From: Escherichia coli
GTDB lineage: Bacteria > Pseudomonadota > Gammaproteobacteria > Enterobacterales > Enterobacteriaceae
Length of the DNA stretch: 64,000 nucleotides
Assembly (NCBI RefSeq): GCF_048403405.1
Contig: NZ_CP183129.1
Direction: 5' to 3' (one strand)
Positions 26,883-29,800 of the stretch are shown here, piece by piece (position 1 is the stretch's first letter; the number at the start of each line of letters is the position of its first letter). Position numbers: made by a program.

Positions 26883-29800
26883 TGATGAGGGACGTATTTG
26901 TATTAGTCGCGACTTGATCTGACACATGGCCTTGAAAGGTTGAGAGTTACCGGTTTTGATATGAGTGTCGAATCCTTATCCAAAACAAGAGGTAACTCTC
27001 ATGCTTCATACTGCCAATCCCGTCATCAAACACAAAGCCGGTTTGCTCAATCTGGCTGAAGAACTCAGCAACGTATCAAAAGCCTGTAAAATCATGGGCG
27101 TTTCGCGTGAAACGTTTTATCGTTACCGCGAACTGGCCGCTGAAGGCGGTGTGGATGCGCAGATTAATCGTAGTCGCCGCGCTCCTAACCTTAAGAACCG
27201 TACCGATGAGGCAACTGAACAGGCTGTTGTTGATTACACCGTCGCTTTCCCGACACATGGTCAGCACCGGGCCAGCAACGAGCTGCGTAAACAGGGGGTT
27301 TTTATCTCCGACAGTGGTGTCCGTTCTGTCTGGTTACTCCATAACCTTGAGAATCTCAAAAGACGATACTGAACAAATTTTATCAGGTGACGTTCCGTAA
27401 AAAGTTGTATGGAGTTCTCGATGCAGTCGGCGCGACTATCAGTACCCCCGCTGAACCCTGGACTATCGGGCCGCCGTACTGGGGCATGTCACCCTGGCGT
27501 GCCGCTGGTTTTCCGCTAATGGTTTATTTCCTCTTTCTTTCCCGGCGAGAATTTATTTTAATCCGGAAGGATTATTTATTTTCAGATAGGGACTCACATT
27601 AAACACGAAACATTTTAATTAATGCATGGCTGAATATGTATTACACAATGTCAGATATCGTAAAAGACCAGTGCAATTCTATGTAAACTCTCTGACTGTT
27701 CATTTTATTTGTTGTTTCAGGGTCGGAACTCACCCTCAATAAACAACTGAATACGAGTAGATATTCATCGTCTGAGCTATATGGCTTTACACAATAGCCG
27801 ACATGTCTTTTCTCAGTCAGGGATTTTACTTTTCCTCACTACGAAGTTGACGACTTCGATATGGGATAGACTCTTAATTCAAGCAATTACTCTGCACAAG
27901 CATCAGGCAATCCAGCTCCAATATTTGTTATAAAATAATGCGCAACATTAATTTCACCAACAAAAAAAAGGTTTACGCTATCCCCTTGCCCTGGTATTTT
28001 ACCATATTTACACCACACTTCTTTTGTATCTGGATCATTCTCTGATACGATTTTCGCCACTTGTTCCCTGGCCCTCACCGTCAATGTTTTCTTAAACCTC
28101 CCCCCATCATCGATTGTTAGGGAAAAATAAGAAAAAAAATAATCATCTTCTACATTTGTGGATATTGATATATCCACCGCTACATGCGGAAAAAAATCTG
28201 GGAGCCATGTAAAAACCCCATCACTTTCTGGTATTGCCATATAGTTTATGTAATGCTTACTTACAAGAGATTCATCTTTGTGTAAATAAAGATAAGTAGT
28301 CACGCATAAAAAAACAACGATTATAATAGCAAAAATAAATATTACCATCTTTGAGATGTTACTTGAGATAGCCAGCATCTTGTAAAGCCTTTATCGTTTT
28401 TTTATGCTCTGGATTAATATAATTAATACATCTATTTGAGCAATCTTGTGTTAATGGACATGTCAACCCATGTTCATTTACAGCCAAGTCTTTTTTATTA
28501 TCTTCAATCATCTCAGAATGGGATAACTTTACTTTTCTGCCGTACATACCGAACATATTTAACCCGTAATCTCTAATCTCTTTTTCATAACCCAGCCCTT
28601 TCGCTGATCGGCTAACACCAGCGTCATTTAATTTAGACACTCGACAAAATGCCATACAATGGAAAAATTGATCAGTCCCACCTAAATTTAATCTCTTCAT
28701 ATCATCATAAGTATCAGATAATATATCCCATGCTCTTTGATGGTTTAGTTGTTCTTTTTTTCGCATTAACGCTACATCTGCAGGACTTAACCCTAATGGA
28801 TCAATACCATTCACCGGATTCAGCGGATACGCATACAGACTCCATCCCCCCGCCAGCCCAATCGGGTCCTGAGTAATATATCGTCCCAGCAACGGATTGT
28901 AGTACCGGTTCCGGTTATAATACAGCCCTGACTCCTCATCGTGTTGCTGCCCTGGCAGACGGTACGGCTGGTGCAGGTGATGCGGGTTTTCCTCATTCAG
29001 CAGGTTTCCCCACTCATCATACTCCCCGCTCCACGCCGTATTGCCGTCTTCGCTGATGAGCGCCAGCGGCAGCCCCCGGTGGTCACAGTGATAAAGATGA
29101 ATTTTTCGCTCAGGTAAATAAACCGGCTCTATCTGTGTCGCCAGCCGCTCCACCGTCAGCCCGCACTGTGCCAGCCACTGGCGGCTTTCACTGCTCACGC
29201 GGTCTGCCCGGATTTCCCCCTCCAGCCTGTCCAGCAGCCGCACCAGTTCAGCCGGGAACACCACGCCGTGTCCGTCCTCGCTCCCTTCCTGCTGGAGCTT
29301 CTCCGCCAGGCTCCGCCGCTGCGTTTTCTCCCGCTCGCCGTTGTCTGTTTCGATGCGGATGAGCGGTGTGAAGCTTCCCGGCTCGTATACCGTCTGGATA
29401 CGTGTGCTGTCGGTCTGCACCGTCGTCAGGTGGTCGCCGTCCCAGCCGTACCACGTCACCTCCGGTTTACGCGACAGCGACATCCACCCCGTCAGGTCAC
29501 GCTCCCGCCGCCATACCCGTTTCGCCATTCGCCGTCCCAGCGGGTCGTAGAGGTAGCGGCTCTCGACCAGTGGCTCGCCATGCTGTATCCGCGTGTAGAA
29601 CTCCAGGCGGTGCTGGCTGTCGTAGTGGTAGTGGTGGGTCCGCTCGTCGTCCGTCCGTATCACACCCGCCGGGATGCGGTCCGTCTTCTCCGTCAGCCTG
29701 CCGTATTCATCGTGGCGGTAGACATAGTGCGCATCCTCCGCGATGCGGTTATCCGGCCACGCCGTGAGTGTACTGTCCGGGTGCAGCTCCGGGTCCTGCA

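Follow-up and report, generated by a model that had tools for sequence, protein, structure and literature searches.

What the C-terminal tip of an Rhs protein does, and whether the small gene behind it encodes the matching antidote, is the question raised by the rhs element in a stretch of 64,000 nucleotides (nt) from Escherichia coli (contig NZ_CP183129.1 of assembly GCF_048403405.1; this whole stretch is called the window below). The element is assigned to the E. coli rhsD locus on sequence grounds, because it is bordered by gcl, allR, allA, allS and selU on one side and by ybbP on the other (open reading frames, ORFs, and the annotation of K-12 and of strain ST2747). Between ybbP and selU it holds a full-length Rhs protein gene of 1400 amino acids (28359..32561, minus strand; ORF, NCBIfam and blastn), directly followed by an intact ORF of 163 amino acids (27887..28378, minus strand; NCBIfam NF011298), which overlaps the rhs stop by 20 nt and is the candidate immunity gene, ybbD. 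On the combined evidence of sequence and predicted structure, the tip is a member of the prok-SAA family of the Lipocone superfamily and a homologue of animal serum amyloid A (SAA). Alignment shows that K-12 has both the tip and the ORF as pseudogenes, ylbH and ybbD, located immediately behind its ybbC, whereas the versions in the window are intact (92% amino acid identity).

The tip comprises residues 1259-1400 (28362..28787, minus strand), that is 142 codons, a count that corrects the figure of about 146 in an earlier note on this DNA, and the SAA-like domain spans residues 1270-1395 (28377..28754, minus strand; Pfam, profile, AlphaFold2 and Foldseek). The earlier note had also described the tip as an unrecognised domain and proposed nuclease, deaminase and ADP-ribosyltransferase families as candidates; none of these applies, and the domain search gave SAA instead, in line with published descriptions as SAA-like in 2020 (PMC7216683) and as prok-SAA in 2025 (PMC12419801). 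A single significant Pfam match was obtained, to SAA (PF00277; E=2.6e-4 to 4e-4). An exhaustive phmmer search of 1.84 billion representatives with the tip as query (E<=1e-3) returned 90 relatives, most of which carry the domain at their extreme C-terminus, right after a DPxGL-type Rhs motif; word-index protein searches found almost only copies from Escherichia, Shigella and Hafnia, and the diverged relatives came from the exhaustive search. Pfam SAA is matched independently by 42 of the 59 aligned domain segments (E<=1e-3; best 1.4e-26). A profile built from bacterial sequences alone matches all PDB entries of serum amyloid A (7zh7 at E=1.3e-14, 4ip8 at 4e-12) and gives no other convincing match, and a broader profile reaches E=2e-23 against the PDB entries of SAA. 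Furthermore, the tip is 59% identical (E=2e-45) to HAU8267270.1 from the published Prok-SAA list, in which WP_074823867.1 is a second visibly similar sequence.

The predicted structure points in the same direction. The AlphaFold2 model of the tip, computed on the bacterial alignment, has a mean predicted local distance difference test score (pLDDT) of 93.1 and a predicted template modelling score (pTM) of 0.87, and contains six helices (residues 2-23, 29-41, 46-68, 80-98, 106-113 and a further helix 119-127, in domain numbering). The top seven Foldseek matches of this model in the PDB are all human SAA1 or mouse SAA3 (probability 1.00; target-normalised template modelling score 0.68-0.73), while all other matches have a probability of at most 0.11. 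The tip is hydrophilic, its best 19-residue Kyte-Doolittle window averaging 0.55, and the model thus describes a soluble domain of low hydrophobicity with four core helices and a short fifth, as is characteristic of Prok-SAA.

Seven residues are invariant in the 59-sequence bacterial alignment (D1297, H1301, C1302, E1328, D1358, N1362 and C1374, in Rhs numbering), and six more are conserved at 90% or above (M1288, C1306, D1331, D1354, G1365 and C1378). In domain numbering, no variation is seen at D29, H33, E60, D90 and N94, and very little at D63, D86 and G97, over 59-60 sequences. When human SAA1 was added to the bacterial set (in a sequence that agrees with the PDB alignments), the D, H, E, D and N remained invariant and the cysteines dropped out. 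The pocket predicted for Lipocone proteins consists of a His on helix 2, a Glu on helix 3, an acidic residue at the end of helix 3 and an Asp on helix 4, as well as a downstream polar residue and a Gly, written sNxxGR in the SAA-Wnt clade (PMC12419801); in the tip, H1301, E1328, D1331, D1358, N1362 and G1365 are all present, and all are invariant or nearly so. The conserved cysteines form two CX3C pairs, C1302/C1306 on helix 2 and C1374/C1378 on the short fifth helix (C34/C38 and C106/C110 in domain numbering). From this arrangement we infer two inter-helix disulfides, which would imply folding in an oxidising compartment. A Cys-His protease was also considered, in view of a weak Peptidase_C7 match (E=0.04-0.05) and the invariant His-Cys pair, and was set aside because the cysteines are two CX3C pairs on helices 2 and 5 that are absent from animal SAA, for which disulfides are the better explanation.

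The downstream ORF belongs to the YbbD family: NF011298 matches residues 1-163 with 369.4 bits against a cutoff of 326, and PF26610 (YbbD_head) is recorded for the cluster representative, which is 98% identical to the YbbD of the window. By its position it would be the small immunity gene expected directly downstream of an Rhs polymorphic toxin. Its N-terminus is a hydrophobic membrane anchor at about residues 8-30 (28289..28357, minus strand; Kyte-Doolittle and AlphaFold2), with a Kyte-Doolittle 19-mer mean of 3.03 and a modelled helix over residues 2-32. A sequence search of the PDB with YbbD gave no match, and none of the 23 family members was matched in Pfam-A, the library used being one without PF26610.

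The genes downstream of five diverged prok-SAA tips (loci L004, L006, L007, L008 and L009) were inspected in order to compare their neighbourhoods with that of the window. In L004, where the tip is 55% identical to that of the window, a 173-residue PF26610 protein follows that is 29% identical to the window YbbD (E=4e-14), and in L008 (tip 42% identical) a 151-residue PF26610 protein follows. The tip of L006 (50% identical) precedes an anchored protein of 168 residues with the same ...W-x3-FP...I... head motif, and that of L007 (38% identical) a lipoprotein with an LSGC lipobox and again the same head motif, the relatives of which are Xanthomonas lipoproteins. No YbbD-type gene is found downstream of the tip in L009 (30% identical). 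The downstream proteins in L004, L006, L007 and L008 and in the window all possess an N-terminal transmembrane anchor or lipobox, and most have two conserved cysteines. Both the position behind diverged tips and the extracytoplasmic topology are therefore those of a cognate prok-SAA immunity protein. Because YbbD-type genes follow diverged tips, the toxin and the YbbD family co-occur while diverging fast, as cognate pairs do.

Two of these loci deserve separate mention. In L007, the lipoprotein is encoded by an uncalled ORF at about 3140-3625 (plus strand), directly after the prok-SAA Rhs gene; it reads MSRSTLFSFALLALSGC..., is kin to Xanthomonas 'hypothetical lipoproteins', and is probably an unannotated immunity gene. 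In L004 (CP029992.1, 1800-5700), the related tip occurs as an orphan among several arrayed toxin/immunity modules, near matches to Ntox16, DUF6714, TseH and Imm58, and this array shows that orphan cassettes with the SAA-like tip also circulate beyond E. coli K-12.

The relationship to K-12 was established by blastn of the window against MG1655. From ybbP through rhsD up to the end of the core, the two sequences share 95.0% nt identity; the alignment then skips about 1.2 kb of K-12, which encodes RhsD-CT and YbbC, and resumes at ylbH-ybbD-ylbI-ylbG-selU with 96.8% nt identity. The tip is identical to the tail of K-12 YlbH at 131 of 142 residues, and YbbD to K-12 YbbD at 150 of 163 residues once a 1-nt frameshift in the latter is corrected. 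This frameshift, which makes K-12 ybbD a pseudogene, lies in a homopolymer (28132..28139, minus strand; located by the K-12 comparison) that is T8 in the window and T7 in K-12. Among protein clusters, the full 163-residue form of YbbD has 1365 member sequences and 86-residue 'YbbD head' truncations have at least 460; since both forms occur, loss of ybbD by slippage seems to be common. The earlier note was right in setting the tip and the ORF apart from the RhsD/YbbC pair of K-12 and in finding the ORF unlike YbbC, BLASTP of both against K-12 RhsD-CT and YbbC giving nothing better than E=6. Its idea of a swapped toxin/immunity cassette survives in part: the pair is a polymorphic cassette on an Rhs core, but it is not foreign to K-12, where it is the orphan module ylbH-ybbD.

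How the two arrangements arose was examined at the core end, where overlapping blastn alignments define a stretch of 212 nt (28825..29036, minus strand) that has two homologous counterparts in K-12, the rhsD core end and the 5' end of ylbH. This stretch is a mosaic, with 90.6% identity to the ylbH 5' end versus 85.4% to the rhsD core end. A clean recombination breakpoint was sought within it and not found, and the mosaic suits either deletion here or insertion in K-12. The difference between K-12 and the window is more in keeping with C-terminal displacement or recombination than with a new cassette having been gained here. Displacement of this kind was reportedly described for rhs evolution by Jackson et al. 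in 2009. The orphan pair ybfO/ybfC at K-12 rhsC was tried as a paralogue of ylbH-ybbD, and tblastn gave no match. Comparison of the tip with that of K-12 YlbH shows 11 non-synonymous and 6 synonymous codon differences, and five of the 11 amino acid differences fall at 28419-28451 (tip residues 1370-1380), around the second CX3C pair; this cluster might mark a surface that determines specificity, or else drift of the orphan in K-12.

The pair is common in the species. Among 5426 complete E. coli genomes, DNA of the tip and ORF is present in 3302, with a coverage of at least 80% in 2723, and K-12-type RhsD-CT/ybbC DNA is present in 1896. The arrangement was classified in an evenly spaced sample of 41 full-coverage genomes with a 2-kb query across core, tip and ORF. 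In 16 of these, including O157:H7 and O111:H8, the query matches in one piece annotated 'RHS element core protein | hypothetical/YbbD family protein', as in the window; in 24 it matches in two pieces with rhsD and ybbC between them, as in K-12; and in the remaining genome it is interrupted by IS1. The exact allele (at least 99%) occurs in 139-192 genomes, and the locus of strain ST2747 is 100% identical (proteins WP_000014926.1, 'RHS element core protein', and WP_000879778.1).

The remainder of the Rhs protein has the architecture of a polymorphic toxin carrier. The core (residues 1-1258; 28788..32561, minus strand; NCBIfam and Pfam) consists of a DUF6531 plug region and a YD-repeat shell. NCBIfam RHS_core matches residues 1-1258 with 2707 bits (cutoff 2000), and eight YD-repeat stretches and Rhs_assc_core are also recognised, RHS_core and Rhs_assc_core both ending at residue 1258; an Rhs shell of YD repeats is thus present, and Pfam RHS_repeat and DUF6531 match as well, the latter (E=1e-17, residues 46-123) being the first significant domain of the protein. 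The core ends in DPLGL, which translates from 28788..28802 (minus strand), in agreement with the earlier placing of a DPxGL core end near 28790; by analogy with what is generally known of Rhs proteins, this motif is presumed to be the autoproteolytic release site of the tip. A core end of the PxxxxDPxGL type is therefore followed by a variable tip of another base composition: the core has a GC fraction of 0.637, as against 0.350 for the tip, 0.354 for the downstream ORF and 0.549 for the whole window, so that the AT-richness reported in the earlier note is borne out, as are the peptide strings that it quoted. The step from core to tip is sharp and is no chance fluctuation.

Taken with the published account of the superfamily, these features suggest how the pair might work. 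Burroughs, Nicastro & Aravind (eLife 2025; PMC12419801) define prok-SAA as belonging to the seven Lipocone families that have become tips of polymorphic toxins, delivered by type VI secretion system (T6SS) or MuF carriers. All immunity proteins of Lipocone toxins are transmembrane proteins or lipoproteins, and the gene-context entry for prok-SAA is 'TM+Imm-SAA' (PMC12419801). Cleavage or exchange of phosphate-linked lipid head groups by Lipocone families is a prediction; TelC, the sole assayed Lipocone toxin, cleaves lipid II, and its toxicity is confined to locations outside the cytoplasm (PMC12419801). The toxin of the window probably acts in the periplasm as well, because diverged tips elsewhere are followed by YbbD-type proteins that have a membrane anchor or a lipobox, and an anchored YbbD family agrees with this account both on transmembrane or lipoprotein immunity and on the context entry for prok-SAA.

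The reading that we modestly favour is that the intact RhsD-SAA/YbbD pair is a periplasm-acting, T6SS-delivered toxin that cleaves lipid-linked wall precursors and is blocked by YbbD. The Rhs shell would enclose the tip and free it by autoproteolysis after DPLGL, and a T6SS would carry it into the periplasm of a neighbouring cell, where the twin CX3C cysteines would pair into two inter-helix disulfides. The pocket of His1301, Glu1328, Asp1331, Asp1358 and Asn1362 would then attack a phosphate-linked lipid head group, the likeliest substrate being, by analogy with TelC, an undecaprenyl-pyrophosphate-linked wall precursor such as lipid II, and envelope synthesis would be blocked. In sibling cells, YbbD, anchored in the inner membrane with its domain on the periplasmic side, would bind and block the tip.

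Several observations weigh against this scheme. Enzymatic activity of the SAA clade is the prediction of one paper (PMC12419801), and no experiment on any prok-SAA toxin was found in the literature. The position of sNxxGR reads VNEHGL in the tip, the final Arg being absent. The AlphaFold2 model of YbbD, based on an alignment of 23 sequences, is weak (pLDDT 67.5, pTM 0.52), and Foldseek of this weak model against the PDB gave no match above a probability of 0.13. As to delivery, the N-terminus of E. coli Rhs proteins is usually termed a PAAR motif. In the present protein, Pfam PAAR_motif matches residues 2-29 at E=0.16 and 1.5, below threshold (residues 1-29 correspond to 32475-32561), and no vgrG or eagR gene adjoins the rhs gene (ORFs and ST2747 annotation), the 64-kb window giving no view of the T6SS of the strain. 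A sub-threshold PAAR motif and the absence of an adjacent vgrG or eagR match the 'neighbourless' PAAR-Rhs proteins, which are a recognised class in the E. coli literature. A final point concerns BteO of Bacteroides fragilis (PDB 9UU0), the solved non-SAA protein structurally closest to the tip, which is reported to be non-enzymatic and to bind OmpA-type domains (PMC12541434).

Cleavage of a lipid-linked wall precursor is accordingly a best guess made by analogy, and binding to OmpA is its main rival. A periplasmic toxin built of the same parts that acts without catalysis, with YbbD protecting by filling the groove, is in our judgement unlikely, even though human SAA has been reported to bind E. 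coli OmpA and the essential residues of BteO resemble the prok-SAA pocket in order and spacing. Judged from the models, the 'nonenzymatic' BteO may itself be a diverged Lipocone with its essential His, Glu and Asp in the same pocket; however, two prok-SAA profiles do not detect 9uu0 at E<=10, and the likeness is for this reason a structural lead only. A bolder proposition, tentative and rather doubtful as it stands, is that RhsD-SAA/YbbD is a working periplasmic toxin and antidote with a pocket acting either on undecaprenyl-pyrophosphate-linked precursors or on OmpA-type peptidoglycan anchors. It would also be conceivable, if improbable, that the tip is a non-catalytic, membrane-active protein that, like the lipid-binding serum amyloid A, takes up lipids or inserts itself among them and makes the inner or outer membrane permeable: the tip has the SAA fold in the AlphaFold2 and Foldseek analyses, mouse SAA3 crystallises with retinol bound (6py0), and the immunity protein is membrane-anchored, yet the hydrophilic character of the tip (best Kyte-Doolittle window 0.55) speaks against such an activity, as does the fact that its conserved positions are polar pocket residues and form no amphipathic face.

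Two further explanations were weighed. The cassette might be carried but unused, a silent Rhs element lacking a dedicated vgrG/eagR partner and kept by hitch-hiking, with toxin and immunity now inactive; the missing T6SS neighbours, the sub-threshold PAAR motif, the AT-rich promoter region (GC 0.26) and the decayed copies that are all K-12 and many other strains retain are in keeping with this. Little probability is nevertheless attached to it, given that both reading frames are intact over 4.7 kb, that every conserved pocket residue and cysteine is kept, that the same arrangement is retained in many lineages, and that neighbourless PAAR-Rhs proteins are an established class. That the tip is aimed at an animal host, mimicking serum amyloid A to modulate inflammation, was proposed for O157:H7 RhsD from its similarity to 4ip8 (PMC7216683), and is very improbable here: a dedicated immunity-type gene follows the tip both in the window and in diverged relatives, members of the family occur across environmental bacteria on both Rhs and MuF carriers, and its bacterial members have cysteines that animal SAA lacks.

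What serum amyloid A does has been a matter of dispute for 50 years. Should the proposed periplasmic activity be true, the activity of RhsD-SAA in E. coli would show which biochemical role serum amyloid A had ancestrally, since the invariance of the pocket residues extends to human SAA. A full-length member of the toxin family with an intact immunity gene in a highly tractable bacterium is also of practical value; K-12, with its defective ybbD, should be a natural target, and the pair is suited to deciding whether SAA-fold domains are enzymes on lipid-linked wall precursors or OmpA binders.

Of the other features of the element, an Rhs N-terminus remnant of 32 codons that has lost its start codon lies downstream of the cassette (27425..27520, minus strand; translation and ST2747 annotation); it is ylbI-like, and is annotated as an incomplete coding sequence in ST2747 and as ylbI in K-12. 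A truncated, ylbG-like helix-turn-helix fragment marks the far edge of the rhs element (27001..27366, plus strand; ORF and annotation of ST2747 and K-12). The remnant and this truncated gene are debris of older rearrangements of the element. On the other side, the intergenic region between ybbP and rhs (32562-32990) is very AT-rich, with GC down to 0.26; it contains one weak sigma-70-like site (32678-32650, minus strand) and, behind ybbP, a hairpin resembling a terminator (32976-32949), and scans for promoters and terminators gave no match meaningfully above shuffle expectation.

The pair was also compared with known systems. K-12 RhsD-CT (DUF4329) and YbbC, an NTF2-fold immunity protein, occupy the same place on the same Rhs core, but their sequences are unrelated to those of the window pair, which cannot be counted with them (best BLASTP E=6; the encoding ~1.2 kb is absent), and DUF4329 is given a cytoplasmic RNase role in the cited literature. 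TelC-TipC of Streptococcus intermedius, a lipid II phosphatase of the LXG class delivered by the type VII secretion system, together with its immunity protein, belongs to the same superfamily (PMC12419801); TelC acts only outside the cytoplasm, its immunity protein is membrane- or periplasm-facing, and the system provides the template for the reaction proposed for the tip. It differs from the window tip in its Lipocone clade and its secretion system, and TelC gives neither a detectable sequence match to the tip nor a top-ranking fold match. In the BteO-BtiO pair, BteO has its own N-terminal transmembrane helix instead of an Rhs carrier, and BtiO is a signal-peptide protein that mimics OmpA-C (PMC12541434).

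Vertebrate serum amyloid A (PF00277; 4IP8, 4Q5G) is a homologous four-helix cone that has the D/H/E/D/N residues in common with the tip. It is, however, a stand-alone secreted plasma protein of ~104 amino acids, without the CX3C cysteines, the Rhs carrier or an immunity gene, and the tip is a homologue of animal SAA that stands outside the Met-SAA family. With Prok-SAA as published (PMC12419801), the window pair shares the fold, the pocket residues, an Rhs carrier presumably delivered by a T6SS and a transmembrane-anchored candidate immunity partner; it departs from that description in having VNEHGL for the sNxxGR motif, and neither the rhsD locus nor YbbD is named there. The published 'Imm-SAA' is an alpha-helix and four beta-strands with four absolutely conserved cysteines and a transmembrane anchor (PMC12419801). 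YbbD is likewise transmembrane-anchored, but its family conserves two cysteines outside the anchor as against four, and its AlphaFold2 model is too weak for a comparison of folds; the 37 supplementary files of PMC12419801 contain no immunity sequences and no YbbD motifs.

The closest relatives are found at the same locus in other strains of the species. K-12 ylbH-ybbD (b0499, b0501) has the locus, the sequence family and the 20-nt overlap of toxin stop and immunity start in common with the window; in K-12, however, the tip belongs to a 236-codon fragment without an Rhs core, a frameshift (T7) disrupts ybbD and a different tip sits on the main rhsD, whereas in the window the tip is fused to a full core of 1258 residues and ybbD is intact (T8). 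In O157:H7 EDL933 RhsD (z0651), the C-terminus of which was likened to human SAA1 and PF00277 in an in-silico survey of enterohaemorrhagic E. coli in 2020 (PMC7216683), the tip sits directly on the Rhs core as in the window, and O157:H7 genomes give a single-piece match. That survey read the SAA-like domain of z0651 as host-directed and left YbbD undiscussed, and the O157:H7 allele differs, with ~93% nt identity to the window over 2 kb. The feature is already known: it is a common rhsD-locus allele that is annotated in RefSeq and has K-12 pseudogenes as its counterparts, and its family has been classified in the literature.

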